IMG/VR virus record: IMGVR_UViG_3300037047_000060
Coordinates: 1 to 36,053 of that record
Reading direction: 5' to 3' (one strand)
Source: a virus
DNA: 36,053 nucleotides
Part shown: positions 3,934 through 36,053 of the stretch, piece by piece
Numbering within the stretch: position 1 is the stretch's first letter
How the letters are laid out: each line of letters begins with the position of its first letter
Program-made: the position numbers and the translations under genes
Notes under the pieces: model-generated
Databases searched by the model: none
What the model was told of the DNA's origin: nothing
What the model saw: only the letters and a program-made list of their open reading frames with translations

Positions 3934-4314
3934 ATGGTAAAAATAAAGATTGCATTGCAACGACATGGCACTGAAATTGAACTATCAACATCAACCCAGA
4001 TCCAAGTAGGAAACTACGTTGTCGTCCATGCGCCACAAGGACACGAAGTCTTTGGGAAATTCATGACAGGTCAAGTATTGGAAGTATCGGAAGATTTATC
4101 CAAAAGCGAAGAATCATTCGTTCAAAAAATCGATACAACTTATTACGACATCCTGCAGGAAGAAAAGGCGCAATCATCAAGAATGAAAGAGATTCTTGAT
4201 AAGATATGGCATGAGAAAACTGTCGATGAAAAATTGACAATACTTGAAGCCACAGAACCACAGATCCAGGATCCATTGCTTGAAGAAACTAAGGAAGAAG
4301 AAGGTACAGACTAA
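3934..4314 (+). CDS. Hypothetical protein
   Basis: 126-aa ORF with a strong RBS (aaggagg) 7 nt upstream. Confidence 0.7.
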   Translation: MVKIKIALQRHGTEIELSTSTQIQVGNYVVVHAPQGHEVFGKFMTGQVLEVSEDLSKSEESFVQKIDTTYYDILQEEKAQSSRMKEILDKIWHEKTVDEKLTILEATEPQIQDPLLEETKEEEGTD

Positions 4315-4664
4315 TGGAGGAAAAGATTATAAACAGAGCCTTTGCGTTCAGGCTTGGGGATCGTATGCCGAAATGGCTTAGAATCCTTTACTACATCGTA
4401 TTGTTCGGAACGCTAGTGTATGTCCTAATCTGGCTTATAGCAAAACTGCTCATAGGCATCCAGAAATTAGGATACACATTGTTTTCACCGTCATGGTATT
4501 GGCCAATCATCACAAGCTTGTTCATTCTAGCTGTAGGCACATTTTTTGTGGCACAAGTCATACTAGGACTTGACCCCTGGGGAGCGTTTACTCAATGGAT
4601 AGAAGAAAGCGTGATCAGAATATTTGGAGGGGTCTATGTGGGGGAAATTACGAACATTAATTGA
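4314..4664 (+). CDS. Small membrane protein (holin-like candidate)
   Basis: 116 aa with 2-3 long hydrophobic stretches (ILYYIVLFGTLVYVLIWLIAKLLIG; WPIITSLFILAVGTFFVAQVILGL). The start overlaps the preceding stop. Confidence 0.6.
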   Translation: MEEKIINRAFAFRLGDRMPKWLRILYYIVLFGTLVYVLIWLIAKLLIGIQKLGYTLFSPSWYWPIITSLFILAVGTFFVAQVILGLDPWGAFTQWIEESVIRIFGGVYVGEITNIN

Positions 4665-5409
4665 ATTAATCCTTTATTACGTCTTTACAGCCATTGCAGG
4701 TTTTATGGATAGCATAGAACTGGGTTGGCTTCAAAAAACATTTTACATGCTTTCTATAGTGCTATTACTTGTGGCCATGGGCAAAGTAATGAAAGGTAGT
4801 AAGATGAATGTAGAGAAAATGACATCTGCAGCATCGACTGCGGAGCAGGTATTAAATCCAGAGGCTAAAGCGAGATTAGCAGTTAGACTATTAAGATCAT
4901 TCAAAAAAGGAGGAATCATCATGTTTGGATGGGCAAAAAGATTAAGTGTAGTACAAATTGTATCATTCGTCTTTACGTTGTTATTAATTATCTTGGGAGT
5001 GCTTTCGGTCGTAGTACCAGAGCTAACACCGTTTAGCGAATACATTGTTGAAATCCTTGTGTTTGCAGGGTTCTCAGCAGCACCCGGTATCCTTTCATTC
5101 GGTAAGGAACTTGGCGAAAAAGCGAAAAGAGTTAAAGAAGCAAAAGACAAGAAATACGCATTGCTTAAAGAACTCAAATCTATCGATCATGACATCAAAA
5201 CTATTACTGATTTAAATACTGATGTCATTGAAGCTGTCAATCGTATTAAAAAATTACATGCAGGCTCGCTAACAGCAGAGCAGCAAATCAGATACGATAG
5301 CTATGAAGCGCAATTGAAAGCACTCAAAGCAAGGACAGACGAGATTGGAATTGAAGTAGATTCACTAAATACTATCATTAACGATAGCGGAGGTGAACTC
5401 CATGGCTAA
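4636..5409 (+). CDS. Membrane protein with a C-terminal coiled coil
   Basis: The ATG at 4636 follows ggagg (the track start at 4624 is TTG). About 4 hydrophobic segments are followed by a charged heptad-like tail. Confidence 0.6.
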   Translation: MWGKLRTLIELILYYVFTAIAGFMDSIELGWLQKTFYMLSIVLLLVAMGKVMKGSKMNVEKMTSAASTAEQVLNPEAKARLAVRLLRSFKKGGIIMFGWAKRLSVVQIVSFVFTLLLIILGVLSVVVPELTPFSEYIVEILVFAGFSAAPGILSFGKELGEKAKRVKEAKDKKYALLKELKSIDHDIKTITDLNTDVIEAVNRIKKLHAGSLTAEQQIRYDSYEAQLKALKARTDEIGIEVDSLNTIINDSGGELHG

Positions 5410-5989
5410 GACTGATAAAGGATCCTATGGAAAAATCACCAGTGTTGAGGAACTTGTAAAAATTACAAATGAATCCGAAACTAAGATTGCTGTAGGTGTT
5501 ACCGAAAACGGTGGACTCTATATCATCAACGAAGCTGGTAAACCAGAAGCCGTCAACACAGATCGTGCATGCTCAATTTTAGGGGTAAACCTTGATGAAT
5601 TAAAACAAATCATCAGTTCAAGAGGAACTGTAGAGTTTGATAGATTCAATGTCAAAGAAGAAATCGTTCTAGACGCTCCCACAGCGAACGAAATCAACGA
5701 AGACGAACAAGAACCCATACCAAGTGCTGAAAAAGCGGAGGAAGACGAAATTGAAGCCAAAGACGATAAAGCGGAACAAAAAGTCGAGCATCAAACCGAA
5801 CCAGAACCAGAAACAGTTACTGTCGGTAAAGAACGCTACGATGAACTTATTGAATGCGAAGCCAAGAAAGACAAAGCACTTGAAGATCTTGAAGTAGCAC
5901 AAAATAAGATCCATGAGCTAGAAGAAAAAATAGCAGAACTGGAAGTCATCAAAGAAGCTGCAAAGACAATCGCAAAATTGTTCCAATAA
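5402..5989 (+). CDS. Hypothetical acidic coiled-coil protein
   Basis: The ATG at 5402 is 7 nt after ggaggtg. There is a long D/E/K-rich segment. The gene is followed by a terminator. Confidence 0.6.
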   Translation: MAKTDKGSYGKITSVEELVKITNESETKIAVGVTENGGLYIINEAGKPEAVNTDRACSILGVNLDELKQIISSRGTVEFDRFNVKEEIVLDAPTANEINEDEQEPIPSAEKAEEDEIEAKDDKAEQKVEHQTEPEPETVTVGKERYDELIECEAKKDKALEDLEVAQNKIHELEEKIAELEVIKEAAKTIAKLFQ

Positions 5990-5995
5990 CTTAAA

Positions 5996-6032
5996 GCCCT
6001 AGCATAGACTAAAATCTAGCAGGGCTTTTTTT
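5996..6032 (+). terminator. Rho-independent terminator
   Basis: The GC-anchored stem gccct(a)gc(a)taga pairs with tctagcagggc around the loop ctaaaa, followed by a T7 run (6026-6032). It sits directly after the stop at 5989. Confidence 0.8.
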
Positions 6033-6056
6033 ATTGCACTTCATGTCACATAAACG

Positions 6057-6085
6057 TTGACTAAGTAAACGCTATTTGATATAAT
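6057..6085 (+). promoter_or_regulatory. Near-consensus sigma-70-type promoter P1
   Basis: TTGACT (6057-6062), a 17-nt spacer, then TATAAT (6080-6085), with a TG at the extended -10 position (tGaTATAAT). The block 6050-6071 is identical to 17985-18006. Confidence 0.8.
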
Positions 6086-6123
6086 GGTGTTAGTAAGGTA
6101 GGGCGTAGCCCATGGAGGAAAAG

Positions 6124-6303
6124 ATGAAATACGGAATGCGACTAAGAGGGTTCAGCATAGGATGCCAACCAATGAATGGATTTATAAGACGACATGATGA
6201 TCCAACGAATAAATATTACGACATCATAGAATATGATAGAAAACTGACTAAGCAAGAAAAAGAAACATATAATCTAGACGAAATAAAGGAGGTAAAAAAA
6301 TAA
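6124..6303 (+). CDS. Hypothetical small protein
   Basis: ORF MKYGMRLRGFSIGCQP.... The ATG at 6124 is 5 nt after ggagg. The ATG at 6112 is an alternative start. Confidence 0.6.
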   Translation: MKYGMRLRGFSIGCQPMNGFIRRHDDPTNKYYDIIEYDRKLTKQEKETYNLDEIKEVKK

Positions 6304-6304
6304 T

Positions 6305-6373
6305 CGAAACTGGAGTCAACCACCATGACTCCAGTCCACTGGAATAGCCACCCAGTGCTGATGAGATAGGCTA
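6305..6373 (+). ncRNA. Hammerhead-type self-cleaving ribozyme candidate HH-1 (type II topology), predicted cleavage after C6336
   Basis: Core elements: C-GAA-A (6305-6309); helix III c-tggagtc/gactcca-g (6310-6317/6327-6334); U16.1-C17 (6335-6336); helix I cactgg/ccagtg (6337-6342/6352-6357); CUGAUGA-G (6358-6365). A pseudoknot pairs tagcc (6345-6349) with ggcta (6369-6373). The element is intergenic. Weak point: stem II has only 3 canonical pairs (gat/atc). Confidence 0.7.
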
Positions 6374-6386
6374 GGAAGGTAACACA

Positions 6387-6650
6387 ATGACAAAAGCACA
6401 AGTACAAGCAAAAATGGAAATTATACAGGATGAAATATTTAAAATAGAACAGGAATACATCCCAAACTTCGAAGAAAAAAAAGAAAAGATAGAAGAAAAA
6501 GCTGATGAAAGAGAATCAGGCGAAAACACAGAAAAAGAGCAAGAAAAAATAGAAAAAATAGATTTAAAAATTGAGTCACTAGAAGAAGTAAAAGATGCAC
6601 TACAGGAGGCATACGATAAGTATCAAGAACTACTTGATTTATACGAATAA
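6387..6650 (+). CDS. Hypothetical highly charged coiled-coil protein
   Basis: 87-aa ORF rich in E/K, with RBS aggaagg upstream. It is flanked on both sides by the hammerhead-like elements. Confidence 0.65.
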   Translation: MTKAQVQAKMEIIQDEIFKIEQEYIPNFEEKKEKIEEKADERESGENTEKEQEKIEKIDLKIESLEEVKDALQEAYDKYQELLDLYE

Positions 6651-6652
6651 AT

Positions 6653-6715
6653 CGAAACACTAGCACAGTCTAGTGTCTGCAGGAAATAGGCAACTTGCAC
6701 TGATGAGAGAGCCTA
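6653..6715 (+). ncRNA. Hammerhead-type self-cleaving ribozyme candidate HH-2 (type II topology), predicted cleavage after C6677
   Basis: Core elements: C-GAA-A (6653-6657); helix III c-actag/ctagt-g (6658-6663/6670-6675); U-C17 (6676-6677); helix I tgcagg/cttgca (6678-6683/6694-6699); CUGAUGA-G (6700-6707). A pseudoknot pairs taggc (6687-6691) with gccta (6711-6715). All helices covary with HH-1. Confidence 0.7.
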
Positions 6716-6727
6716 GGAGGAAAGAAA

Positions 6728-7228
6728 GTGAAGATACTAAATAAACTACAAGAAGCATTCAAGAATAATGTTTGGATGCCTGATCTACTAACAAAAGTAG
6801 ACTCAGATGCCAGATGGAGAGCAATCGATGTCATAGAAGAAATAAAAGGAATAAAAATAGATTGGAATTGGAAAGATACAGACTTTACAAAACTAGGATG
6901 CAATCCAATAGTCGTAGAATTCTCATCAACAAAAACTGATAAAATCACAATGAAGAAAGGGTTAAAAATTATTCAAAAATTTATCAAAAACACAGATTAT
7001 CAAATAATCACAGGAAATAATCTTGTAATACTAATTGATAAAGTAGAAGAATCATCAGAAATAAAATTTAAAGATACAATAGAGGAAGACTTAGAAGTCA
7101 TAGGTGCTATACCAGCTATAGGTAGTTTAAGTTCTAAATGGATAAGAGAAACAGCAGAATTTCAGAATATAAAAAAAATATTGATAAAATTAAAAAACGG
7201 AGGAAATAAAAATGAAAGTAAAGATTAA
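6728..7228 (+). CDS. Hypothetical protein
   Basis: 166-aa ORF with a GTG start 7 nt after aggagg. Confidence 0.65.
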   Translation: MKILNKLQEAFKNNVWMPDLLTKVDSDARWRAIDVIEEIKGIKIDWNWKDTDFTKLGCNPIVVEFSSTKTDKITMKKGLKIIQKFIKNTDYQIITGNNLVILIDKVEESSEIKFKDTIEEDLEVIGAIPAIGSLSSKWIRETAEFQNIKKILIKLKNGGNKNESKD

Positions 7229-7637
7229 ACTAGAATTTAGAAACGGAATGGTGTTTGAATCACAAGAATGGAATCAAATAAAATCTAACCATCATCTAGA
7301 ATTTCTTGTACAAGAAATGATAGAAGAAAATGGAGTAGAGCTGGGAAAGCCAACTGTGAAATACATAACAGATCCAGAAGAAAAAAGAGATATCGGCAAT
7401 CTGGCATGGACACCTACTAAGATAGGCGAAATAAGCGAAGGTAACTATGTTACCCAAATATTATCCAAACATCCAAGAAAAATCGCTAGAATCGAAAAAA
7501 CAGAGCATCTGGTTACGCTATATGAAGAAGGAAGAAATCAACCATACTTTAAAGCAAACCCAGAGTATCCTATGGATTTATTAATCGATCACATAACAAA
7601 AGAAGCTGTAACTGATTTGGAGGCTTATTATGAATAA
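7212..7637 (+). CDS. Hypothetical protein
   Basis: 141-aa ORF with RBS ggagga upstream. Overlaps the preceding stop. Confidence 0.65.
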   Translation: MKVKIKLEFRNGMVFESQEWNQIKSNHHLEFLVQEMIEENGVELGKPTVKYITDPEEKRDIGNLAWTPTKIGEISEGNYVTQILSKHPRKIARIEKTEHLVTLYEEGRNQPYFKANPEYPMDLLIDHITKEAVTDLEAYYE

Positions 7638-7944
7638 AGAAGTTCCAAAAAGTTTATATGGATATGCAAACTTTATCAGAAAAGCACAAAAGGAAGATTT
7701 GATACCAAAAGAAAGATACATCATAGAATATCAAATCAAGGTTAGTAAAGAAGAATTCGAAGCTTTAATCAATAACCCATTAGAAGATAAAAACTACATA
7801 GAAGAAAATATAACAACTATGTACTTTGATGGCGATGGTGTATGGCACTGCTTACTTGTAACATGTGAAGGATACAGTTATGGAGTTCTAATAGAATCGG
7901 AAGGATACAACTATGCCAGATATGCAGCACTCATCACACTGTGA
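7630..7944 (+). CDS. Hypothetical protein
   Basis: 104-aa ORF with RBS ggagg upstream. Confidence 0.65.
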   Translation: MNKEVPKSLYGYANFIRKAQKEDLIPKERYIIEYQIKVSKEEFEALINNPLEDKNYIEENITTMYFDGDGVWHCLLVTCEGYSYGVLIESEGYNYARYAALITL

Positions 7945-7954
7945 GGTAGAAAAA

Positions 7955-8362
7955 ATGATTTACTATGAAAAGACAAATCTAAACTTTAGAAACAAAAAAA
8001 CTACAGATTGTGTCGTCCGGGCAATAACAGCAGCATCTGGAAAAAAATACAACGAAATACTTGATATGCTTATAGATGAATACAAGAGAAGTGGAAATCA
8101 CATTGCAGATCCAAAAAATTATTCAAAAGTAATTAGTGAACTAGGATTCATAAAATATGCCCAACCAAAGAAATGGGATAAGAAAAAATACAGAATAGAT
8201 GAAATCGAAAAAGTAGCAGATGCAGATACTCTAATTATTAGTGTCAATAAACATTTAACATGCATTAAAACGATAGATCATAGAAAATTCTTAATTGACA
8301 CATGGGATTGCAGAAACAAATACATCCGAAATTATTGGATAAAGAAAGAGGTAAAGAAATGA
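7955..8362 (+). CDS. Hypothetical protein with a possible papain-like Cys/His/Asp arrangement
   Basis: The ATG at 7955 follows gaggt. The motifs TTDCVVRAI ... NKHLTCI ... IDTWD resemble a cysteine-peptidase triad order. This is a weak inference from pattern only. Confidence 0.35.
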   Translation: MIYYEKTNLNFRNKKTTDCVVRAITAASGKKYNEILDMLIDEYKRSGNHIADPKNYSKVISELGFIKYAQPKKWDKKKYRIDEIEKVADADTLIISVNKHLTCIKTIDHRKFLIDTWDCRNKYIRNYWIKKEVKK

Positions 8363-8805
8363 ACAACGAAATGATGAAGAACATCTTGCTAGAAGTAGCA
8401 AAGATAGAAAATAATCCAAAAAAGGTAGTAACACTAGAGATTGCTACAGTGAATGAAAACAACCAATCAAAACAAGTGATTGTAGCCATCCATGGCAAAG
8501 GATACAACATTAGAAAAGAAGCTAGAGATGTAAATCCAATCTGCGAAGTAATGGAGTCAACCATTATAGAAGCGATGATAATGCTAGAAAAGGATATCAG
8601 ACCAAAAGAAGAATCAGATGCATGCGTTATCAAAGCTGCAAGAGAAGCAAACGGACTGGACCAATTACAAGCAGCAAATATCTTAGGAATTACCAAGCAA
8701 CAACTCAGCACATGGGAAAATGGAAACAGAGTTCCGGGAAAAATAAACAAAGAAAAGATATCCAAAAAACTAGGGTTTCCAGTTGAATACTTCGATAAAG
8801 AGTAA
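8359..8805 (+). CDS. XRE-family helix-turn-helix regulator with an N-terminal extra domain
   Basis: The C-terminal GLDQLQAANILGITKQQLSTWENGNRVP is a classic HTH_XRE signature. The ATG at 8359 follows agaggt. Confidence 0.75.
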   Translation: MNNEMMKNILLEVAKIENNPKKVVTLEIATVNENNQSKQVIVAIHGKGYNIRKEARDVNPICEVMESTIIEAMIMLEKDIRPKEESDACVIKAAREANGLDQLQAANILGITKQQLSTWENGNRVPGKINKEKISKKLGFPVEYFDKE

Positions 8806-8833
8806 AAAGTATACACGATGTAAACAAAGTGCA

Positions 8834-8862
8834 TTGACAAAGTAAGCGGTAGCGACTATAAT
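8834..8862 (+). promoter_or_regulatory. Consensus sigma-70-type promoter P3
   Basis: TTGACA (8834-8839), a 17-nt spacer, then TATAAT (8857-8862). Its -35 region (TTGACAAAGTAAGCG) resembles P1 and P2 (TTGACTAAGTAAACG). Confidence 0.8.
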
Positions 8863-8889
8863 AAATCTAAAATGAAAGGAAACAGATAT

Positions 8890-9126
8890 ATGGCAATCAA
8901 ATCCGCAAACGCTGAAATCGTCAAAGCACTTATGCACATTGGCAACATAAAGCAGAATCAACTAGCAGAAATCCTAGGAATAACTAGGGTAGCAATGTCG
9001 CATAAGATAACTGGCAAAAGTAAGATATTCCCAAAAGATGTAAGTAAGCTTAGTGAACACTTCAAAGTTAAAGAAGAAGTCTTCTATCAAGAAGATGTGA
9101 AAAGTATACTAGTCATAGAAAAATAA
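8890..9126 (+). CDS. Cro/CI-type HTH regulator
   Basis: IKQNQLAEILGITRVAMSHKITGK is an HTH motif. The ATG at 8872, about 10 nt after the -10 element, is an alternative near-leaderless start. Confidence 0.7.
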   Translation: MAIKSANAEIVKALMHIGNIKQNQLAEILGITRVAMSHKITGKSKIFPKDVSKLSEHFKVKEEVFYQEDVKSILVIEK

Positions 9127-9142
9127 AATAGGAGGTTCTAAT

Positions 9143-9466
9143 ATGACAGAACAGGAAAGAAAAAAAGAAGTAAACGAAACAATCTTTGAGGCTCAAAAAA
9201 CAGTATCTGAAATTAAGATATTTTATGGGCAGATATCAAAAAATATTCAATCCCAGACCTGCGAGAAAAATGAAATTGAATCCGCAATTGCAGGAGCAAA
9301 AAACAGACTAAGTAGGCTAGGTGTAAGTCAAGAAGAAATTGATAAAATTGACTTCTATCTAACAGATCCAACAGCGAAGTTCATCATGTGGTGCAATCAA
9401 AATGGGCTACAACCAAAAGATTATAAGTCATTAGAACGTTATCAAAAGGAAGTAGGGATATCATGA
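9143..9466 (+). CDS. Hypothetical protein
   Basis: 107-aa ORF with RBS taggagg upstream. Confidence 0.65.
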   Translation: MTEQERKKEVNETIFEAQKTVSEIKIFYGQISKNIQSQTCEKNEIESAIAGAKNRLSRLGVSQEEIDKIDFYLTDPTAKFIMWCNQNGLQPKDYKSLERYQKEVGIS

Positions 9467-9993
9467 GATTAGCAGAGATTAGAAAACAAAAAAAAATAAG
9501 CAAAAGCGAACTTGCAATTGCAGTAGGAATTAAAGAAAAAATTATGGTAATGATTGAAGATTACAGAGTACTTCCAACACCAGATACTATGATAAAAATT
9601 GAAACAGCACTGAATGCAGATCGTCTTCAAATTTACTCCAGGGAAGAGATTAGACTACTAAGAAAAAAGAACGGTAGAAATGACATTCCAGATGATTATC
9701 CATACTTTCATATTCACGTAAGACTTGATAGAAAGTTCAAGAATTTATTTTCAAAAGAAGCACTTAAAGAAGCAGGATATAAAAGCTTGAATGATTGGTT
9801 CATGAGAAGAGCATATGACTTAATCAAACGCATAGAGTACGTCACCGAAGCAAAAAAGAAAAAAGACCCCGCATACCTTCCGCCAGAAGAAATTAGAGTC
9901 TTATTTGACAACCCATTTATTGTCAATAATAGAATATCAAAAAATCTATTAAATGTCAATGGGAAGGAAAATAGGAAATGTCAAGAAGAGTAA
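9463..9993 (+). CDS. HTH-domain protein
   Basis: The N-terminal ISKSELAIAVGIKEKIMVMIEDYRVLP is XRE-like. The start overlaps the upstream stop (ATGA). Confidence 0.6.
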   Translation: MRLAEIRKQKKISKSELAIAVGIKEKIMVMIEDYRVLPTPDTMIKIETALNADRLQIYSREEIRLLRKKNGRNDIPDDYPYFHIHVRLDRKFKNLFSKEALKEAGYKSLNDWFMRRAYDLIKRIEYVTEAKKKKDPAYLPPEEIRVLFDNPFIVNNRISKNLLNVNGKENRKCQEE

Positions 9994-10631
9994 AATACTT
10001 TGGTGGACAGCATCAAACATGGCCAATCAAAGATCCAAGGGAACTAGAAAGATTTATGTTTCAATTATTAAAAAAAAGAGAATCAGCAAAAACACCAGTC
10101 AAAAAAGAGCAAGCGGACAGAAACTGGATGCTATGTGTCCTAGGATTTAATACAGCACTCAGAGCAGAAGATTTGCTGCAGATAAGAGTCAAAGATGTTT
10201 TAAAAGGTTATGTATCCATCAAGGAAAATAAGACCGGGAAAATGCAAAATTACAAAATGAACAAGCAACTACATGATGACATCTTAGACTATATTCAAAG
10301 AAACAATTTGACTGAGTATGATTACATGTTCATGGGTCAGAAAAAGATACATCAAGGCAAGAAAATATACCTACCTATAACAAGGCAACAAGGACACAAA
10401 ATCGTATCAGATACTGCAAATGAAGTAGGAATAGGATATACATTCGGATTGCATAGTTTAAGAAAGACATTCGGATATCACTACATATTAGGTGGAGGAT
10501 CCTGGCAAACACTTTCAAAGATGTATAACCATAACGACATCATAACGACTCAACTATATGTTATGTGGGATTTAAATGATGCTCAAAAAGAAAGAGTTAA
10601 AGTTTATATTGGCGGAGTCCATAAAAAATAG
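9978..10631 (+). CDS. int: Tyrosine recombinase / integrase (short form, essentially the catalytic domain only)
   Basis: Box I GFNTALRAEDLLQIRVKDV, box II HSLRKTFGYHY (HxxR) and a terminal TTQLYV tyrosine. Only 217 aa. Confidence 0.8.
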   Translation: MSRRVKYFGGQHQTWPIKDPRELERFMFQLLKKRESAKTPVKKEQADRNWMLCVLGFNTALRAEDLLQIRVKDVLKGYVSIKENKTGKMQNYKMNKQLHDDILDYIQRNNLTEYDYMFMGQKKIHQGKKIYLPITRQQGHKIVSDTANEVGIGYTFGLHSLRKTFGYHYILGGGSWQTLSKMYNHNDIITTQLYVMWDLNDAQKERVKVYIGGVHKK

Positions 10632-10651
10632 AAAGAGAAAAGGTATTTAAA

Positions 10652-11437
10652 ATGGCAAGAAGAATGTTCTCAGATCAAATAACCGACAGCGACATGTTCC
10701 TAAACATGCCTGTATCAGCACAAAACTATTACTTCCATCTTATCTCAAAAGCTGATGATGATGGGTTCGTAAAAAACCCTATGGCAGTCATGAGAAACGT
10801 AAAAGCAGGTCAAGATGATTATATGCTTCTGATAGCAAAAAGATTTATAATCGCATTTGATAACGGAGTGGTAGTTATAAAGCATTGGCGAATCCACAAT
10901 CTAATAAGATGGGATAGATACAAACCTACAGTTTATCAGGAGCAAATGGCACTGCTAGACATGAAAGAAAACAAAGCTTACACACTAAAAGAAATCCAGA
11001 ATCCATCAGATTTATTCGACTTAATAGAAGAAGAAAATGACTCTGGCAACCAAATGGCAACCAAAGATAAGTTAAGAGAAGTTAAGTTAAGAGAAGTTAA
11101 GAGAGATAAACCTGCGCAAATAACATCGCAGGAGGTTATTCAAGAAGAATCATTGCAGGATAGATTCGAACGCTTCTGGAAAGCATATCCAAAGAAGAAG
11201 GCTAAAGATAAAGCTGAGTCATGGTTTAAAAGAAGAAAACCTACAATAGAACTTGTTGACATCATGATAGAAGCAATTCTAAAGTTTAAAAAGACCGAAG
11301 ATTGGATAAAGGAAGATGGTAAATTCATACCATATCCTGCAACATGGCTAAATGGTGGACGATGGAAAGATGAAATTGATAGTGATATTGTTAAAAGAGT
11401 TGAAAGCAGATGGGGAGGGTTCTTAAATGCTGAGTAA
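10652..11437 (+). CDS. Phage replisome organiser / replication initiator (N-terminal Phage_rep_org-like domain)
   Basis: The N-terminus MARRMFSDQITDSDMFLNMPVSAQNYYFHLISKADDDGFV... is typical of the replisome-organiser N-domain. The gene contains an internal DNA tandem repeat. Confidence 0.7.
   Translation: MARRMFSDQITDSDMFLNMPVSAQNYYFHLISKADDDGFVKNPMAVMRNVKAGQDDYMLLIAKRFIIAFDNGVVVIKHWRIHNLIRWDRYKPTVYQEQMALLDMKENKAYTLKEIQNPSDLFDLIEEENDSGNQMATKDKLREVKLREVKRDKPAQITSQEVIQEESLQDRFERFWKAYPKKKAKDKAESWFKRRKPTIELVDIMIEAILKFKKTEDWIKEDGKFIPYPATWLNGGRWKDEIDSDIVKRVESRWGGFLNAE
11069..11105 (+). repeat. Perfect 15-nt tandem repeat (aagttaagagaagtt, 2 full copies plus a partial) inside the replisome organiser gene
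   Basis: 11069-11083 equals 11084-11098, followed by the partial copy aagagag. It encodes KLREVKLREVKR. Confidence 0.85.
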
Positions 11438-11954
11438 AAAAGTATTTGTACAAGGTATGGAACTTCTAAATGCATTCTATGTATACTTCAAACTTGACTT
11501 AGACAATCCACTTGTACAGCAAGTATGGTACATGACATTCAAAAACTTATCAGATGCGGAATTCGAATCATTAATACAAAACTATATGATGGAAAATTCA
11601 AGACCGCCAGACTCACCTACAAGACTTATAGAATCCATGAGAGATAAAATAGCAAGTAAAAATATAAGTGGCGAAGCTGCATGGGAAAATATATTATTAA
11701 TGCTCAGAAATAAAAAGTATCAAGGATACAATCCATCATCAGGAACAATCTACTACATAGAAGATATGATAAATGATATAACAGATCCTGCATTAAAAAA
11801 AACTATATCAGAAATGAAATCTCAAATTAAAGACTACACAAATGAATGGGTAAGAAAAGAGTTCATAGAAAATTATGAACTAAATGTTAAGCAACAAGTA
11901 AAAAAAATAATAAGTATAGACTTCAACATCAAAGCAATTGATTATAAGAAGTAG
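11427..11954 (+). CDS. Possible helicase-loader-like replication protein
   Basis: Position directly after the replisome organiser. The N-terminal region is reminiscent of SPP1 G39P-type loaders. Assignment is tentative. Confidence 0.4.
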   Translation: MLSKKVFVQGMELLNAFYVYFKLDLDNPLVQQVWYMTFKNLSDAEFESLIQNYMMENSRPPDSPTRLIESMRDKIASKNISGEAAWENILLMLRNKKYQGYNPSSGTIYYIEDMINDITDPALKKTISEMKSQIKDYTNEWVRKEFIENYELNVKQQVKKIISIDFNIKAIDYKK

Positions 11955-11965
11955 GAAGGAATCTA

Positions 11966-12232
11966 ATGGAACAAAAAATCATAGAAGTACCTATTGAATT
12001 TATAACAGCTATGATAGAAGAACATGGAATCAATCATACATTAAAAAGAGATCAGAATTTATATATAAGTAAAGAAGATGATGTATGGGTAGCATGCGAC
12101 AATACAAGCGGTGACTGCAATATCGAAAGTTACAAATCAAAGAATAGAGCAATCAGATACTTACTTGGCGAAGATCCAGAATCACTTGCAGAAGAAGAAG
12201 AGTGGGATGATAATGCTTATAACGTCAAATGA
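11966..12232 (+). CDS. Hypothetical protein
   Basis: 88-aa ORF with RBS aggaagg upstream. Confidence 0.6.
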   Translation: MEQKIIEVPIEFITAMIEEHGINHTLKRDQNLYISKEDDVWVACDNTSGDCNIESYKSKNRAIRYLLGEDPESLAEEEEWDDNAYNVK

Positions 12233-13530: not shown

Positions 13531-13720
13531 AGCATTAACAGCAAAGCCCGGACAAGCTGTAAAAGTTAAAATCAATGGCGAATGGGTAGATGGAATATAT
13601 ATCCAAACAACAATGTTCCACATTAAAGTAGCAGTTTTATATAATGGTGAGATAAGACAAATTAATGCAGAACATCATCAAGTAAGAGATTTTAAATCGA
13701 GAGTGGGTGTACCTAGATGA
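13523..13720 (+). CDS. Hypothetical small protein
   Basis: The ATG at 13523 is 7 nt after ggagga. 65 aa. Confidence 0.55.
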   Translation: MDKALTAKPGQAVKVKINGEWVDGIYIQTTMFHIKVAVLYNGEIRQINAEHHQVRDFKSRVGVPR

Positions 13721-14301
13721 TTGTAGAAACTCCTGCAGGAAAAGGAAGATATGGAATCATATTAATAGATCCACCATGGCAACTGATGAGAGGTGGAAAA
13801 ATGAAAAAAAAGCCGAATTCATCAGGAATGCCAGTTCCATACAAAACAATGGCACTAGAAGAAATCAAATTATATATCCAAAATATAGTCAGTGAATCAC
13901 AAGAAGCAAATCTATTTATATGGTGCATTCAAAAGTACTACATAGAACTTGATAAGATGATGAAAAGCTTAGGCTATAAAAAACACACAGACATCATATG
14001 GTCAAAAGGAAATGGTCCATGTCCTGCATTCACAATGAGAATGACTCATGAGTACCTGCAGTGGTGGTACAAGCCCGGACACATTCTAATGCCAATCAAT
14101 CCAGGACATCATGCAACAGTCATACATGAACCCAACTCAGACCATAGCAAAAAACCAAAAGCAGCATACGAATTGATAGAATCAATGTTCCCAGATGCAA
14201 TGAAATACGAAGTGTTTGCAAGAAAAGAGAGAATCGGATGGGATGCATTCGGTGACGAACTAGGAGGAAGTGGCCATGGGCGATGTGAAGAAACCAAGTA
14301 G
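13717..14301 (+). CDS. MT-A70 family DNA N6-adenine methyltransferase
   Basis: YGIILIDPPWQ (DPPW catalytic motif) plus the C-terminal HSKKPKAAYELIESMFP...ARKERIGWDAFGDE, typical of the MT-A70/Dam-like phage family. Confidence 0.85.
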   Translation: MIVETPAGKGRYGIILIDPPWQLMRGGKMKKKPNSSGMPVPYKTMALEEIKLYIQNIVSESQEANLFIWCIQKYYIELDKMMKSLGYKKHTDIIWSKGNGPCPAFTMRMTHEYLQWWYKPGHILMPINPGHHATVIHEPNSDHSKKPKAAYELIESMFPDAMKYEVFARKERIGWDAFGDELGGSGHGRCEETK

Positions 14302-14671
14302 CGTAAGAAATCGAAAAGGGGAAGTGTGGAAGTTCTTAGGAACAAAGCACCTGATCAGCAATTATGGAAGATGTTACTCACTAACATTTAAAAGAATTAT
14401 AAAGCAATTTAAAAACAACAGTGGGTACTACAGAATCAAAGTAGGAACAAAATGGCACTTCACCCACATCAAAGTCGTAGAACTGTTTGGCGATATCAAC
14501 GGAGTGAATCTAGCACACATAGACACTCTAGTAGGAAATGGACTATCAATCGATCACATCGATAGAAAAAAAAGAAACAACAAACAAAGTAATCTAGAGC
14601 TAGTCACACATCAGGAAAACTGCCAAAGAAAGTTCAAAAAAAACGATAATGATGAGATATCAGATAAATAA
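14270..14671 (+). CDS. HNH homing endonuclease
   Basis: GLSIDHIDRKKRNNKQSNLELVTHQENCQRK is an HNH_3-type motif. Confidence 0.8.
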   Translation: MAMGDVKKPSSVRNRKGEVWKFLGTKHLISNYGRCYSLTFKRIIKQFKNNSGYYRIKVGTKWHFTHIKVVELFGDINGVNLAHIDTLVGNGLSIDHIDRKKRNNKQSNLELVTHQENCQRKFKKNDNDEISDK

Positions 14672-15470
14672 CGAATCAGCACGTGCATGGTGCATCAGAA
14701 ATCAAGTAAGTTATCCAAAAACACTTAAGCTCATCAAATCTGGAATAGAAGAAGAAGAAATAAAAAAGATATTAGGGAAGCGATACGAAGCAAGAACAAT
14801 CGAGCAAGCAACATCCATAGCAGCAAAGAAATGGATGAACGCTAAGACGAGAGAAGATAGAATCGCAATCAGATCATGGTTCACAAAGCAATACGAGGAA
14901 CATCCAAGATACAGCGAAATGTGGGATAAGATAGTCAATGGTCAAGCACAAATTAAATGGCTACCAGTCGAAGGTTATCCCGGATATGAGATTAGCAACA
15001 ACGGAATCTTAAAGAAGTACCTGAAAGATGTATCACTGGTACTCAGACCACATAAAAAAAAGAAATGGAACAAGTCCAGAACAAAATGCAGATATCATTT
15101 ATTCGTAAAAATATACGGACCAGAAGGAATGAAGTATATCAAATTAGCAAAAATAGTAGCAACAGCATTCATCAGACCTACAGATAACTTATATATTCAT
15201 CACATCGATGGGAACTACAGAAACTGCAGAGCTGATAACTTAGAATTGGTAGATAAAAGTAGCCATGGACAACTCACAGGATATCAGAAAGACCAATCTA
15301 AAGTTATACAACAGTTGGATGCTGAAGGAAACATAATCAAAGAGTACAGATCATCAAGAACAGCAGCAAAAGCATTATTCGTAAGTTATCAAACAATCCT
15401 AGACATATGCCATGGCCGAATTAAAAGAGAAGCGATTGTCAATGTCAGATTTAAAAAGGAGGAAAAATAA
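14649..15470 (+). CDS. HNH homing endonuclease with NUMOD-like modules
   Basis: WLPVEGYPGYEISNNGILKK (NUMOD4-like), IHHIDGNYRNCRADNLELV (HNH), and the C-terminal EYRSSRTAAKALFVSYQTILDICHG (NUMOD1/IENR1-like HTH). Confidence 0.8.
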   Translation: MMRYQINNESARAWCIRNQVSYPKTLKLIKSGIEEEEIKKILGKRYEARTIEQATSIAAKKWMNAKTREDRIAIRSWFTKQYEEHPRYSEMWDKIVNGQAQIKWLPVEGYPGYEISNNGILKKYLKDVSLVLRPHKKKKWNKSRTKCRYHLFVKIYGPEGMKYIKLAKIVATAFIRPTDNLYIHHIDGNYRNCRADNLELVDKSSHGQLTGYQKDQSKVIQQLDAEGNIIKEYRSSRTAAKALFVSYQTILDICHGRIKREAIVNVRFKKEEK

Positions 15471-17957: not shown

Positions 17958-17991
17958 AATTCAATCTTTAAACCATTGTAATATATAAACG

Positions 17992-18020
17992 TTGACTAAG
18001 TAAACGTTAAGTAATATAAT
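17992..18020 (+). promoter_or_regulatory. Near-consensus sigma-70-type promoter P2 (paralogue of P1)
   Basis: TTGACT (17992-17997), a 17-nt spacer, then TATAAT (18015-18020). TAAACGTT occurs twice (17986-17993 and 18001-18008), flanking the -35 element. The 22-nt block 17985-18006 is identical to 6050-6071. Confidence 0.8.
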
Positions 18021-18055
18021 GGTTCTAGATAAAAAGAAAACATCGGAGGAATAGA

Positions 18056-19639
18056 ATGGACTTATTCAGCACAATGGTACCTAGCATTAAGTTTTCAAAG
18101 AACAATGAACTAACTATGAATGAAAACTTTGCAGGAATAGGTGCATTTAAAAAAGGGTTCGAAAGAGCAGGCTTCAAGGTAAAAGTTGTTGCAATTAGCG
18201 AAATAGATAAATACTGCATCCAAACATACAATGAGATACATGGACCAGTTAATAACCTAGGCGCTATAGGCTCATTCGATAGGCTTCCTGCAGGAGTTGA
18301 TGTATGCACATGGTCATTCCCATGTCAAGACATTTCAAATGCAGGACATGGCAAAGGAATGGAAGAAGGAACCAGATCCAATTATGGGTTCGTATTCTTA
18401 GAAACATTAAGAAATACACCTATAGAAGAAAGACCAAAAGTACTCATCATGGAAAACGTTGCATTGTTATTCAGCAAAAAGTTTCATAAATATTGGAGTA
18501 GGATACTTACGATATTATCGGAATGCGGATATCAGAACTATCCAGGGAAAATGAATGCCAAAGATTATGGGGTAGCACAAAACAGAGATAGAGTCTTTAT
18601 AGTATCCGTACTAGGCGAATATAGTTACGAATATCCTAAACCATTCAAATTAGAAAAAAAGCTTAAAGACTATTTAGAGCCACAAGTTATTGAAAAGTTT
18701 TATTTAACAGCAGATCAGATACTTTCAATGTTTAAATCTAAATATGAAAGTATGGGTATCAAAAGAGTTAAAGAAGAAGATGCTGAAACAATCAATGCAA
18801 TCACAACGATGCAGGGCGGAAATAGAGAACCTAAAATAATTGAAAACATTAAGAAAGATGAAAGAGAACCAAAGATAGCATACGCAGTCGCAAGTCGTGA
18901 ATTCAGAGAACGTGGTTTTATGGAAATAGCACCCACACTTCTATCAAGAGATTATAAGGATCAAAAAATATTAGAAATACCACAAGATAAAACGATATGC
19001 ATAAACTCAAAGGTGGATGGGAAGCAACCAAGCATTCAAAACAGAGTGTATGATGTCGAAGGACTTTCAACCGCTATAACAACGTCATTCATGACAAATA
19101 GTGCAGAACCACAGTTCGCATATGGACCACAAAAAAGAGAATTCTCAGGTTTTAAAGAAATTGCCCATACATTAAGAGCAACTGACTATAAGCAACCTAA
19201 CGTAGTTTTAATACCTGAGAAGACAAAAAAAGAATATGCAGAAGCAACCGATGGCGATGGAATCTATATCAACAGACCATATCAAAAAAGAGGTACAGTC
19301 CAAAAAGGAAAGATACACACAATAAAAACTTCACCAGATGACATAGGTCTAGTAGAAAACATCCAGACCGAAGTAAAAAAATTAAAGTTAGTCTACGACT
19401 TGGGATTATTTAGAATATACGAAGACGAGGACAAAAAAGCATATCTTATGAATAAAGATGGTCAACTATCAAGAATTAGAAAAGTGACACCACGTGAATC
19501 ATGGAGGCTCATGGACTTTGATGAAGAAGACTTCAATAAAGCAGAAAAACTGAACAGCAACACTCAATTATATAAACAAGCAGGAAATTCAATAGTCGTA
19601 GGAGTTATAGAACAAATAGCAAGAATGATGATGGAGTAA
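18056..19639 (+). CDS. DNA (cytosine-5) methyltransferase with an expanded, internally repeated target-recognition region
   Basis: Motifs: I FAGIGAF, IV SFPCQDIS, VI IMENV, VIII QNRDRVFIV, IX VTPRESWRLMDF, X AGNSIVVGV. About 270 aa lie between motifs VIII and IX. That region holds duplicated segments (AYAVASREFRERGFMEIAPTLLSRDYKDQKILEIP and AYGPQKREFSGFKEIAHTLRATDYKQPNVVLIP) and three xTIxT(S/M) motifs. Confidence 0.9.
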   Translation: MDLFSTMVPSIKFSKNNELTMNENFAGIGAFKKGFERAGFKVKVVAISEIDKYCIQTYNEIHGPVNNLGAIGSFDRLPAGVDVCTWSFPCQDISNAGHGKGMEEGTRSNYGFVFLETLRNTPIEERPKVLIMENVALLFSKKFHKYWSRILTILSECGYQNYPGKMNAKDYGVAQNRDRVFIVSVLGEYSYEYPKPFKLEKKLKDYLEPQVIEKFYLTADQILSMFKSKYESMGIKRVKEEDAETINAITTMQGGNREPKIIENIKKDEREPKIAYAVASREFRERGFMEIAPTLLSRDYKDQKILEIPQDKTICINSKVDGKQPSIQNRVYDVEGLSTAITTSFMTNSAEPQFAYGPQKREFSGFKEIAHTLRATDYKQPNVVLIPEKTKKEYAEATDGDGIYINRPYQKRGTVQKGKIHTIKTSPDDIGLVENIQTEVKKLKLVYDLGLFRIYEDEDKKAYLMNKDGQLSRIRKVTPRESWRLMDFDEEDFNKAEKLNSNTQLYKQAGNSIVVGVIEQIARMMME

Positions 19640-19643
19640 GAAA

Positions 19644-20555
19644 ATGATAATCATAGGCAATGCATTAGAAGAATTGAAAAAGCTTGAAGATGAAAGCATA
19701 GATTGCATCATTACATCACCACCATACTGGTCATTAAGAGATTATTAAACTGCAGGACAAATCGGACTTGAACCTACAATTAAAGAATATATCCAAAATT
19801 TAATAAAAGTTTTTAATGAAGCAAAAAGAGTTTTAAAGAAAGATGGAACCTGTTGGGTTAACATAAGCGATACATACTCAGGCGATAAGACTGGAAAGAC
19901 AGATCAGAAGATGCAATACATACCAAAGCAAAATCTAAAGAAGAGAGTGAGAGAACTCCCAAGAAAATCGCTATGTAACATACCTGCTAGGTTTTCAATA
20001 GCAATGCAGGACGAAGGATGGATACTTAGAAACGAAATTATATGGTACAAACCAAACGCTATGCCATCGAGCGTAAAGGACAGGTTCACAGTAGACTTTG
20101 AAAAGATATACTTCTTCACAAAGAACACAGAGTATTACTTCAACCAACCAAAAGAACCTATGAGAACAAACGATATAAGCCAACCAAGAGGAAGCAAAGG
20201 GGTTCTAGGATCAATGAATGGAGGAAGAAGAAACAAGCAGCAAGAACAACCAAGGCCAACAGAACAGAACCTGATGCGTAACAAACGTACAGTATGGACC
20301 ATAAACACCCAAAGAAGCACGTACGAACACTTTGCAATGTTCCCTAAAGAACTAGTGGAAACCATCATAGAAGCAGGATGTAGACCACAAGGTGTAGTCC
20401 TAGATATGTTCCTAGGCTCAGTTACCACAATCAAGGTGGCAAGCACAATGAATAGAGCATACGTGGGTATTGAAATCAATCCAGAGTATGCTCAGATAGC
20501 AAAGAAAAGAATGGAAAATGTTCAGATCAGTATATTTGGATGGGAAGATGGATAA
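19644..20555 (+). pseudogene. SPPY-type (N4-C / N6-A, beta-class) DNA methyltransferase interrupted by one in-frame TAA (19746-19748)
   Basis: The ATG at 19644 gives MIIIGNALEELKKLEDESIDCIITSPPYWSLRDY, then TAA. The same frame continues open as TAGQIGLEPTIKEY...NEIIWYKPNAMPSSVKDRF...FPKELVE...VLDMFLGSVTT...GIEINPEY to 20555. Motif I is degenerate (GSVTT instead of GSGTT). Confidence 0.8.
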
Positions 20556-20954: not shown

Positions 20955-21028
20955 TTCTTCACGAAAATATGCCGATTTTTGAAAAAACTTGACATTATGT
21001 TAAACTTTTAGAGAAGGATGTGAAAAGC

Positions 21029-22291
21029 ATGGAAGTTAAAATGATAGATCCAAAAAGTATTATTCCGTATGAAAATAACCCAAGAAAGAATGACAAAGCT
21101 GTAAAACCTTTGATGGAATCCATTCAGCAATTTGGGTTTAATGTTCCAATCACAGTAGACAAGAACATGGTAGTAGTTACAGGTCACACACGATTAAGAG
21201 CAGCACTAAAACTTAAGATGACAGAAGTTCCCATTATCATTCTTGATGGACTTGACGATGAAAAAATCAAAGCATTTAGATTAGCAGACAATAAGTTGTC
21301 CGAAATTGCTGATTGGGATATACAAAAACTGATTGAAGAACTACAAGGCATAGAAATAGACATGACAATCTTCGGCTTCAAAAAAGAGAAGAGTGTTGAT
21401 GATGTAGATGGCGATGATTACGACTTTACACTAGATCCAAAACCAAAGAGTAAACTAGGCGACATTTATCAACTCGGAAGACATCGACTAATCTGTGGCG
21501 ATGCACGTATCAAAGATGACATTGATAATTTAATGGATGGAAAAATGATAGACTGCATCATTACAGATCCACCATACAATGTTGACTATAAAGGCGGAGG
21601 CTCTAACAAGCGAAGCGGTATTCAAAACGACAACATGAATGATGATGCATTCCTAGAATTCCTAACTGACAGTTTTGGAAACATGGCAGCTTATCTCAAA
21701 CCGGGCGGATCATTTTATATATGGTATGGCGATAGCAATGATATCGAATTCAGAATGGCAATCAAAAGAGCAGGACTTGATATCAAGCAAACTATCAACT
21801 GGGTAAAGAACGCATTCACACTTGGAAGACAGGACTATCAATGGCAACATGAACCATGCATCTACGGATGGAAGCCCGGTGCAGCACACTACTTCATTGA
21901 TGACAGAACATGGTCGACAGTATTCTCTGATGACTTTAACATCAGCAAAATGAATGCTAAAGAAGTAAAAGCAATACTGACTCAAATCTTCGAATCAGTT
22001 CAAACAAGTGTACTAAGATATGATAAACCAACAAGAAGCGCAGAGCATCCTACAATGAAACCAGTCAAGTTGATTGCAAGGCTGATGCAAAACAGCAGCA
22101 ACCCGGACGAAAGCATTCTGGATCCATTTGGAGGTTCTGGTACCACACTTATTGTAGCTGAACAAATGAATAGAACTTGCTACATGTCAGAACTTGATCC
22201 CAAGTATGTTGATGTCATAATTAACCGATGGGAAGAGATGACAAAGCAAAAAGCTGTTAAACTAAATAATAGCGAAACCATGGGAGGATAA
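21029..22291 (+). CDS. ParB-like nuclease domain fused to a DNA N6-adenine/N4-cytosine methyltransferase
   Basis: The N-terminus IPYENNPRKNDKAVKPLMESIQQFGFNVPITVD...GHTRLRAA is a ParB/Srx fold. IITDPPYNVDY is motif IV and LDPFGGSGTTLIVAEQ is motif I. The ATG at 21029 is 10 nt after agaagga (the track start is a GTG at 21020). Confidence 0.9.
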   Translation: MEVKMIDPKSIIPYENNPRKNDKAVKPLMESIQQFGFNVPITVDKNMVVVTGHTRLRAALKLKMTEVPIIILDGLDDEKIKAFRLADNKLSEIADWDIQKLIEELQGIEIDMTIFGFKKEKSVDDVDGDDYDFTLDPKPKSKLGDIYQLGRHRLICGDARIKDDIDNLMDGKMIDCIITDPPYNVDYKGGGSNKRSGIQNDNMNDDAFLEFLTDSFGNMAAYLKPGGSFYIWYGDSNDIEFRMAIKRAGLDIKQTINWVKNAFTLGRQDYQWQHEPCIYGWKPGAAHYFIDDRTWSTVFSDDFNISKMNAKEVKAILTQIFESVQTSVLRYDKPTRSAEHPTMKPVKLIARLMQNSSNPDESILDPFGGSGTTLIVAEQMNRTCYMSELDPKYVDVIINRWEEMTKQKAVKLNNSETMGG

Positions 22292-35648: not shown

Positions 35649-35654
35649 GGGGTT

Positions 35655-35673
35655 GTAAGGGGTCTCCCCTTAC
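35655..35673 (+). promoter_or_regulatory. GC-rich hairpin downstream of the VR (candidate DGR target-recognition cruciform)
   Basis: gtaagggg-tct-ccccttac: a perfect 8-bp stem with a 3-nt loop, 22 nt after the VR/TR homology ends. Confidence 0.6.
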
Positions 35674-35681
35674 TAAACTAC

Positions 35682-35709
35682 TTAATTGTTTTTAATAACC
35701 GGGTATAAT
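35682..35709 (+). promoter_or_regulatory. Candidate promoter for the TR-RT transcript
   Basis: TATAAT at 35704-35709, about 6 nt before the TR begins. A weak -35-like TTAATT sits at 35682-35687 with a 16-nt spacer. Confidence 0.45.
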
Positions 35710-35714
35710 ATGCG

Positions 35715-35816
35715 ATCGGCGGTAACTGGAACAATGGCTCGAATGCGGGTCTCTGGTATTGGAATTCTAACAATGCTGCTTCGAACACGAACTCGAACAT
35801 CGGCGGTCGCAATCTT
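35715..35816 (+). repeat. DGR template repeat (TR)
   Basis: The invariant donor copy adjacent to the RT. It contains 26 adenines, including 6 AAC and 5 AAT codons in the VR reading frame. 13 of the 26 adenines are substituted in the VR. Confidence 0.95.
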
Positions 35817-35930
35817 TTACAAGTTAATACTTTATGCATATTATATCCATAGCCCTAGCTAAAAAACACTCATAAGGGATTGGTCTAGTAAGTCATTGAA
35901 AAACCAATAAGAGTAAAAGAAGGAGTATCC

Positions 35931-36053
35931 ATGAAAAGAATAGGGTACATATACGAAAAGATTTATGATAAAGAAAATTTAAGAACTGCAATTTATAAAG
36001 CAGCCAAAGGCAAATCAGATAAGAGGAATATTAAGTTTATTTTAGATAATATT
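35931..36053 (+). CDS. 5' part of the DGR RT gene (duplicate of 5-127 caused by the terminal overlap)
   Basis: Identical to the start of the window. RBS aaggag at 35920-35925. Confidence 0.9.
   Translation, partial: MKRIGYIYEKIYDKENLRTAIYKAAKGKSDKRNIKFILDNI

Follow-up and report, generated by a model that had tools for sequence, protein, structure and literature searches.

Two predicted pseudoknot-stabilised type II hammerhead ribozymes bracketing a small gene in a phage accessory operon

Introduction

The IMG/VR virus record IMGVR_UViG_3300037047_000060 (positions 1-36,053; this whole 36,053-nt stretch is referred to below as the window) carries an 87-codon open reading frame (ORF), ORF87, with a small structured element in the intergenic gap on either side of it. 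The upstream element, HH1, separates ORF87 from a gene with a DarA_C (defence against restriction) domain, and the downstream element, HH2, separates it from a second small gene, ORF166. An initial annotation, made from the sequence alone, had proposed that both elements are hammerhead ribozymes of type II topology which would cut the mRNA of this operon. The first natural type II hammerheads were described by Perreault et al. in 2011, who found them to be common in bacteria (PMC3088659). The same study reported prophage clusters in which hammerheads flank single genes, including a triple set around the anti-restriction gene ardA, and three tandem arrangements that were cleaved efficiently at all sites during in vitro transcription; it was proposed that long phage transcripts are processed in this manner to operon-length or gene-length mRNAs (PMC3088659). 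The remark in the annotation that hammerheads are known from prophages therefore has firm precedent, down to tandem sets around single small genes. Here we describe the anatomy of HH1 and HH2, their relatives and their genomic setting, and weigh what they may do.

Results

Anatomy of the two elements

When the sequence is read nucleotide by nucleotide, HH1 and HH2 contain all of the invariant hammerhead nucleotides in the type II order, in agreement with the initial annotation. In both copies GAAA, the stem III hairpin, C17, the stem I hairpin and CUGAUGA follow one another, an order in which loops close stems I and III and leave stem II open (Table 1). The nucleotide at the cleavage site, H17, which should not be G, is C in both. 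Perreault et al. accepted as hammerheads only sequences with Watson-Crick pairs flanking the core in all three stems (PMC3088659), and such pairs are found at positions 10.1-11.1, 1.1-2.1 and 15.1-16.1 of both HH1 (G6365-C6305, C6337-G6357 and A6309-U6335) and HH2 (G6707-C6653, U6678-A6699 and A6657-U6676). Stems I and III have different sequences in the two copies and retain their pairing; the helix sequences and cleavage positions predicted earlier proved correct on checking, as did the covariation between the copies, which extends to the 42 relatives described below.

In both copies, moreover, loop I pairs with the 3' tail to form a pseudoknot, which the initial annotation did not mention. 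The pseudoknots differ at one base pair with complementarity kept (TAGCC/GGCTA in HH1 vs TAGGC/GCCTA in HH2). Most type II hammerheads have such a pseudoknot, with 4 bp or more between loop I and the nucleotides that follow stem II, and require it for fast cleavage (PMC3088659). The annotation had entered the shortness of stem II as a caveat. The count of 2-3 bp is right, but it is no weakness, being a published hallmark of type II hammerheads with a stacked pseudoknot. In the Rfam Hammerhead_II consensus, too, stem II is 2 bp long and precedes a conserved 3' tail, so the short stem II of HH1 and HH2 is normal for the family.

The minimum-energy fold of HH1 consists of exactly the stem III and stem I hairpins. 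Stem III has a fold energy of -14.7 kcal/mol in HH1 and -6.6 kcal/mol in HH2, and both hairpins exceed shuffled sequence in stability (z = -4.8 and -3.9, respectively).

Table 1. Features of the ribozyme locus and of the corresponding loci in related contigs
Feature	Position	Strand	Details
HH1	6303-6377	+	predicted type II hammerhead; core, full-length match to Rfam RF02276, fold and relatives
HH1 upstream stop codon	TAA 6301-6303	+	A6303 is also the first base of the stem II 3' strand
HH1 stem II	3' strand AUC 6303-6305 with 5' strand GAU 6365-6367	+	3 bp
HH1 G12-A13-A14	6306-6308	+	
HH1 stem III hairpin	6309-6335	+	10 bp; opens with A15.1-U16.1 (A6309-U6335)
HH1 C17	C6336	+	predicted cut after C6336
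HH1 stem I hairpin	6337-6357	+	CACUGG/CCAGUG
HH1 CUGAUGA core strand	6358-6364	+	
HH1 pseudoknot	loop I 6345-6349 UAGCC with 3' tail 6369-6373 GGCUA	+	5 bp
HH2	6651-6719	+	predicted type II hammerhead; core, full-length match to Rfam RF02276 and relatives
HH2 upstream stop codon	TAA 6648-6650	+	
HH2 stem II	3' strand AUC 6651-6653 with 5' strand GAG 6707-6709	+	2 bp plus A-G mismatch
HH2 G12-A13-A14	6654-6656	+	
HH2 stem III hairpin	6657-6676	+	7 bp; opens with A15.1-U16.1 (A6657-U6676)
HH2 C17	C6677	+	predicted cut after C6677
HH2 stem I hairpin	6678-6699	+	UGCAGG/CUUGCA, one G-U pair
HH2 CUGAUGA core strand	6700-6706	+	
HH2 pseudoknot	loop I 6687-6691 UAGGC with 3' tail 6711-6715 GCCUA	+	5 bp
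Promoter-bearing repeat	6050-6093	+	promoter-like site at 6057-6085: -35 TTGACT, 17-nt spacer, TG, -10 TATAAT
First cistron, DarA_C (defence against restriction)	6112-6303	+	63 amino acids (aa); stop codon abuts HH1
Shine-Dalgarno-like GGAAGG for ORF87	6374-6379	+	directly after HH1 pseudoknot strand; 7 nt before ATG 6387
ORF87, bracketed cistron	6387-6650	+	87 aa
Shine-Dalgarno AGGAGG of next cistron	6715-6720	+	shares last base of HH2 pseudoknot strand
Downstream cistron ORF166	6728-7228	+	166 aa; GTG start 6728; would head the 3' cleavage product
L001/L022	L001 2921-3690, equivalent to L022 11220-11988		three ribozymes around two genes
L003	255-1009		three ribozymes around two genes
L002			one ribozyme, after the ORF87-homologous gene
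L005			one ribozyme after the gene; different pseudoknot, CCCCAU/AUGGGG

Pattern and covariance-model searches

The window has two matches to the pattern CGAAAC-N(8-30)-GTC-N(12-35)-CTGATGAG, whereas 100 shuffles that preserved dinucleotide composition gave none. CTGATGAG is found for a third time at 13783, an occurrence dismissed as chance; it lies inside a DNA methyltransferase gene (DPPW motif in the translation) and is without hammerhead helices. HH1 and HH2 each score 34.2 bits against Rfam Hammerhead_II (RF02276) and are matched end to end, with E-values of 3e-5 and 6e-6 when short stretches were searched and, for HH1, 2e-3 when the whole window was searched. We also made a covariance model, R1, from 29 copies. 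With filters off, R1 finds two sites only in the 36 kb window, at 67.9 and 67.4 bits, scores which hold partly by construction since HH1 and HH2 were both among its 29 input sequences; the next best site scores 10.2 bits, and thus there is no third hammerhead in the window by this model. No other ribozyme family, pistol included, has a match in the window at an Rfam E-value of 1 or less. Membership of the pistol class, or of the pseudoknot hammerhead type of PDB 8YDC, was rejected, stem II being present and covarying and helix IV lacking.

Relatives and covariation

A scan of viral contigs with a pattern that specified the core and tail only gave 24 loci. All of its matches have properly anchored stems I and III, and many of the loci hold a second or third copy beyond what the pattern demanded. 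Model R1 finds 42 copies in 26 sources. The initial annotation had named failure of homologous phages to conserve the core as grounds for abandoning its proposal; the core is kept in all 42 copies. Within the CUGAUGA strand of the relatives N7 alone varies, and the A15.1-U16.1 pair is invariant in all 39 distinct relatives.

Base pairs were counted on a model-based alignment, A2, to which the pseudoknot and the third stem II pair were added by hand. A MAFFT alignment was dropped for this purpose because the stem I strands were not kept in one register. Standard pairs are formed in 91.8% of cells across the 42 relatives, compared with 30-38% in registers shifted by 1-3 columns, a figure to be read with the caveat that the model itself fitted the alignment to stems I-III. 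Changes on both sides of the pair (compensatory changes) are seen in 14 of the 20 pairs. Stem III is paired in 100% of cells, all six stem I pairs covary, and at the third pair of stem II 19 sequences have G-C, 12 have A-U and 3 have G-U. The support for the pseudoknot is independent of the alignment method because the pseudoknot is not part of the model: four of its six pairs covary in the relatives and, in a separate count, five or more contiguous Watson-Crick pairs were present in 69% of copies vs 4.6% with shuffled loops.

HH1 and HH2 belong to a subgroup in which stem II (UC/GA) and the tail (GAYAGGCUAG) are nearly fixed. In most copies of the family 0-5 nt separate the start of the ribozyme from the preceding stop codon, and the distance from CUGAUGAGA to the next start codon is 16-40 nt. 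The tight packing of stop codon, ribozyme and ribosome-binding site that the initial annotation had pointed out holds on checking: both elements adjoin the TAA of the preceding gene, and a Shine-Dalgarno sequence follows directly (Table 1). The flanking ORFs in the family have a median length of ~85 aa, and the 63 scanned gave nine Pfam families in total, each found in 1-3 of them. As a side observation, the only matches to the subgroup pattern among reference genomes were in two metagenome-assembled genomes, one of Thermoanaerobaculia and one of Patescibacteria (L030 7613-7668 and L031 1444-1524), far from the context of a low-GC phage.

Homologues of ORF87 are rare, with three among 5.8 billion proteins and one in IMG/VR, and the contigs encoding them have hammerheads in the corresponding positions. 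Collinear with the window, L001/L022 and L003 have additional small-gene units, each preceded by a further hammerhead, that are absent from the window. In L001 and L003 an extra small gene and a further ribozyme lie between ORF87 and the homologue of the window ORF 6728-7228, and L003 has a second extra small gene after that further ribozyme. The second and third ribozymes of L001 are identical across the ribozyme. The window and L003 are ~97% identical, becoming mosaic inside the bracketed region.

The operon and the bracketed gene

A promoter scan found a site at 6057-6085 with 11 of 12 consensus matches plus the TG, and this site is likely to be the start of the ribozyme-containing operon, its function as a promoter being judged from the sequence. 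The 44-nt element that contains it recurs with 86% identity at 17985-18028, upstream of a gene for a 527-aa DNA methyltransferase (18056-19639), which suggests that two anti-restriction modules are controlled together. The first cistron was assigned to DarA_C by its match to Pfam PF18789 (E = 2.9e-12; score 47.3 bits, cut-off 27). The ORF87 product is acidic (28 D/E vs 14 K/R; pI 4.4), and its AlphaFold2 model is an antiparallel two-helix hairpin (pLDDT 94.3) in which the turn region, ERESGENTEKEQEKIEKI, is conserved. Pfam, PHROGs, a PDB sequence profile and Foldseek yielded nothing informative for it, only generic coiled-coil matches with E-values of at least 0.5. ORF166 has no family match in Pfam or PHROGs and no relatives in viral contigs by peptide patterns; regions homologous to it were found by tblastx in L001, L002 and L003.

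There is no terminator-like site on the + strand between 3500 and 10000. On the minus strand, stem III together with the AT-rich stop-codon region is terminator-like at 6307-6337 and 6655-6678. These sites are probably a by-product of the ribozyme sequence, and they could block antisense transcription.

The phage genome

Since its first and last 127 nt (1-127 and 35927-36053) are identical, the window represents an entire phage genome, circular or terminally redundant, of 35,926 bp. A low-GC bacterium is the host of this siphovirus-like phage, whose genome is a 35.9-kb circle. All of its predicted genes are on the + strand, and they include structural genes (terminase, portal, capsid, tape-measure and tail proteins) as well as genes for an integrase, a DnaD-like replication protein, several DNA methyltransferases and HNH endonucleases. 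The terminase shares no more than 39% identity with terminases of cultured Bacillota phages, and the GenBank phage collection gave no match to 4000-12000 by megablast or to 6100-6760 by blastn. There are four DNA methyltransferase genes, one of them fused to a ParB-like domain, plus two adjacent HNH endonuclease genes (gene spans 13717-14301, 18056-19639, 19911-20555, 21020-22291 and 14270-15470); this methyltransferase load is unusually heavy and, with the DarA_C gene added, suggests that evasion of restriction is a major investment of the phage.

A diversity-generating retroelement spans 34089-36053 and 5-1144. A tail-protein gene (34089-35648) carries the variable repeat of the element (35533-35633) at its 3' end, the template repeat occupies 35716-35816, and A stands in the template copy at each of the 12 mismatches between the two repeats. 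The sole match in the window at the Rfam gathering threshold is an RT-18 RNA (35850-35922; 54.7 bits). Since it is flanked by the template repeat on one side and, across the circle junction, by the reverse transcriptase gene (5-1144) on the other, it appears to be part of the retroelement cassette.

Discussion

HH1 and HH2 are very probably pseudoknot-stabilised type II hammerhead self-cleaving ribozymes that would cut the mRNA of an accessory, anti-restriction-type operon into single-gene pieces. The assignment to type II is supported by every one of the sequence-level tests, namely the core, the closing pairs, the covariation of helices I and III and the pseudoknot. Judged by its sequence and by comparison with its relatives, the RNA can adopt the type II fold, with a stem II of 2-3 bp stacked on the loop I pseudoknot. 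Self-cleavage is predicted for both copies by the chemistry of the class.

The proposed course of events is as follows. Transcription from 6057-6085 probably reads through the DarA_C gene, ORF87 and ORF166 and onward. Each ribozyme could fold only after its last ~20 nt had been transcribed, when the strand 3' of CUGAUGA would pair with the three nucleotides just past the upstream stop codon to form stem II. Stem II runs straight into the 5-bp pseudoknot with loop I, which holds stems I and II parallel, as sequence and covariation show, and the core would then catalyse an internal transesterification 3' of C17. The expected ends are a 2',3'-cyclic phosphate on C6336 and C6677 and a 5'-OH on C6337 and U6678, and the expected products are three RNAs: the DarA_C mRNA, a 341-nt ORF87 mRNA (6337-6677) and the downstream mRNA. 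It follows from the type II topology that the upstream products would end in the stem III hairpin, and that the downstream products would start with the stem I hairpin and the pseudoknot strand, right ahead of the ribosome-binding site. It is likely, from this anatomy, that neighbouring small genes would thereby become independent mRNAs with stability and translation uncoupled. Cutting of the operon is the standard hypothesis for such clusters (PMC3088659, PMC6765202) and fits the tight packing seen here.

Several observations weigh against this interpretation. Both copies lie 2.8 bits under the gathering score of Rfam Hammerhead_II, 37 bits, which is a curation cut-off and not a structural feature, and they go unreported at that threshold. 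The covariance-model check suggested by the initial annotation is therefore borderline for the window copies themselves, but copies at orthologous positions do pass (41.9 bits in L002 and 38.6 bits in L022), and six relatives exceed the gathering score, reaching up to 52.1 bits. HH1 and HH2 are AT-richer and have a longer stem III loop than typical Rfam type II hammerheads, which accounts for their 34.2 vs 37 bits. The helices of HH2 are weak, stem I having only -4.4 kcal/mol including a G-U pair and stem II only 2 bp, and a fold of HH2 restricted to nested pairs favours the pseudoknot helix over stem I. A predicted 9-bp hairpin at 6634-6655 (UUGAUUUAU/AUAAAUCGA), which covers the ORF87 stop codon, is an alternative to the HH2 fold and could sequester C11.1, G12 and A13 of HH2. 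This hairpin was not seen in the related contigs L003 or L001 and may therefore be a chance feature. As for the fate of the products, the glmS precedent in Firmicutes is that a 5'-OH end can attract RNase J1, and cleavage could therefore destabilise the downstream product instead of protecting it. Finally, a 2019 review still treats the role of such ribozymes as a suggestion that needs more work (PMC6765202).

The differences between related phages raise the question of whether the ribozymes might chiefly be DNA-level junctions of exchangeable gene cassettes, with RNA cleavage secondary. Conserved ribozyme repeats of ~70 nt between small genes would provide homology with which units of gene plus ribozyme could be added, deleted or swapped. 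The one or two extra small-gene units of L001/L022 and L003, each with its preceding hammerhead, fit this, as does the change from ~97% identity to mosaic between the window and L003; recombination between the identical second and third L001 ribozymes would yield the layout of the window, and the flanking genes across the family are diverse and mostly without a Pfam match. However, a role in recombination alone would not hold the catalytic nucleotides invariant with helices covarying at the RNA level. Furthermore, HH1 and HH2 share the core only and therefore have little mutual homology, and the comparison covered three related genomes, with breakpoints not mapped to the base. We consider such a chief role rather unlikely, and it would in any case be compatible with operon cutting. 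The comparison suggests that the ribozymes may also mark cassette boundaries. That the small genes travel as units of gene and hammerhead, with self-cleavage giving each its own mRNA wherever it has landed, is a speculative extension and decidedly unlikely as it stands.

Regulated cleavage, in which the ribozymes would act as switches coupled to upstream translation or to ribosome binding at the adjacent Shine-Dalgarno sequence, was raised as a possibility for phage hammerheads by Perreault et al. (PMC3088659). The pseudoknot strand abuts the Shine-Dalgarno sequence in HH1 and overlaps it by one base in HH2, and a terminating ribosome would cover the 5' part of the ribozyme since most of the family have stem II 0-5 nt past the preceding stop codon. 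Genome economy explains this tight packing equally well, however, and the ribozymes are without a ligand-binding or other extra domain. The hairpin at 6634-6655 that competes with the HH2 core counts in favour of such a switch but is not conserved in L003, and tandem prophage hammerheads cut efficiently during plain in vitro transcription (PMC3088659); we therefore regard a switch as improbable. It is also very improbable that the 341-nt piece is circularised or spliced out, by an RtcB-type ligase or by the reverse hammerhead reaction, after the manner of retrozymes and viroids. The excised fragment would have the 5'-OH and 2',3'-cyclic phosphate that are substrates for RtcB-type ligation, and, the HH1 and HH2 cores being identical, a full chimeric hammerhead would re-form once its ends were joined. 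Yet Perreault et al. sought spliced or circular products of such clusters and found none (PMC3088659), the available contigs of relatives such as L002 and L005 show a single ribozyme beside the homologous gene, and ORF87 has a stop codon, so there is no obvious translational gain. Equally far from probable is that the elements are catalytically dead hairpin repeats acting as RNA stabilisers or antisense terminators. The stability of stem III over shuffled sequence and the terminator-like appearance of both sites on the minus strand would agree with this, but the latter hinges on the local AT-rich flank, all predicted genes of the window are on the + strand, and dead hairpins would have no need for 13 invariant unpaired core nucleotides or for a covarying pseudoknot or stem II across 42 copies.

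As type II hammerheads that would cut an operon, HH1 and HH2 have close counterparts. They share the core, the permutation, the 2-3 bp stem II, the loop I pseudoknot and the phage or prophage setting of the published class (PMC3088659; RF02276), and their subgroup differs from RF02276 in being AT-richer, with a longer stem III loop and a nearly fixed stem II and tail. The triple ardA hammerhead of Agrobacterium tumefaciens and the tandem set of Clostridium scindens likewise bracket variable small genes, and an anti-restriction gene stands beside the ribozyme both in the A. tumefaciens cluster (ardA) and here (the DarA_C-domain gene) (PMC3088659). Those clusters belong to another host lineage with other genes and were cleaved in vitro, the A. 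tumefaciens set also in E. coli, whereas cleavage of the present pair is predicted. In the 2024 crystal structure of a pseudoknot hammerhead (PDB 8YDC) the pseudoknot replaces helix II and there is an extra stem-loop, helix IV (PMC11300833). As in that ribozyme and in pistol, a pseudoknot would provide the tertiary contact that makes the core fast, but HH1 and HH2 keep helix II at 2-3 bp, have loop I as the pseudoknot partner and are without helix IV. Retrozymes and viroid-like RNAs (PMC4918200, PMC7229834) resemble the locus in that two hammerheads free a defined RNA segment with ligatable ends; theirs are type I or III ribozymes in non-coding, circularising repeats, in contrast to type II ribozymes around a protein-coding cistron of a DNA phage. 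A protein-dependent parallel also exists. In the early genes of phage T7, RNase III sites process a polycistronic transcript to single-gene mRNAs. Those sites are also intercistronic hairpins, and the upstream products also end in a hairpin, but T7 uses a host enzyme whereas here the RNA itself would do the cutting, leaving 5'-OH and cyclic-phosphate ends.

The ribozyme type, the pseudoknot, the short stem II, the clustered arrangement and a similar gene context were all described in 2011. HH1 and HH2 are thus new examples in a known arrangement and change nothing about the ribozyme class itself. Mildly new is that related phages differ by whole small-gene units, each with a preceding hammerhead. 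Since their scores are under the Rfam threshold, a standard pipeline leaves HH1 and HH2 unannotated, and counts of AT-rich type II hammerheads in phages are probably too low. If the cassette explanation were true, each unit would bring a built-in 3' hairpin, 5' leader and ribosome-binding site, and phage hammerheads, long orphans in function, would combine a DNA-level with an RNA-level function. With one likely promoter, three small cistrons and two ribozymes, the locus is a compact test case for the question of what phage hammerheads are for. The family is regular in that the ribozyme starts just past a stop codon and its pseudoknot strand reaches or enters the next ribosome-binding site, and the type II topology would give each product a terminal hairpin, which offers a testable rationale for the use of the type II permutation in operons.

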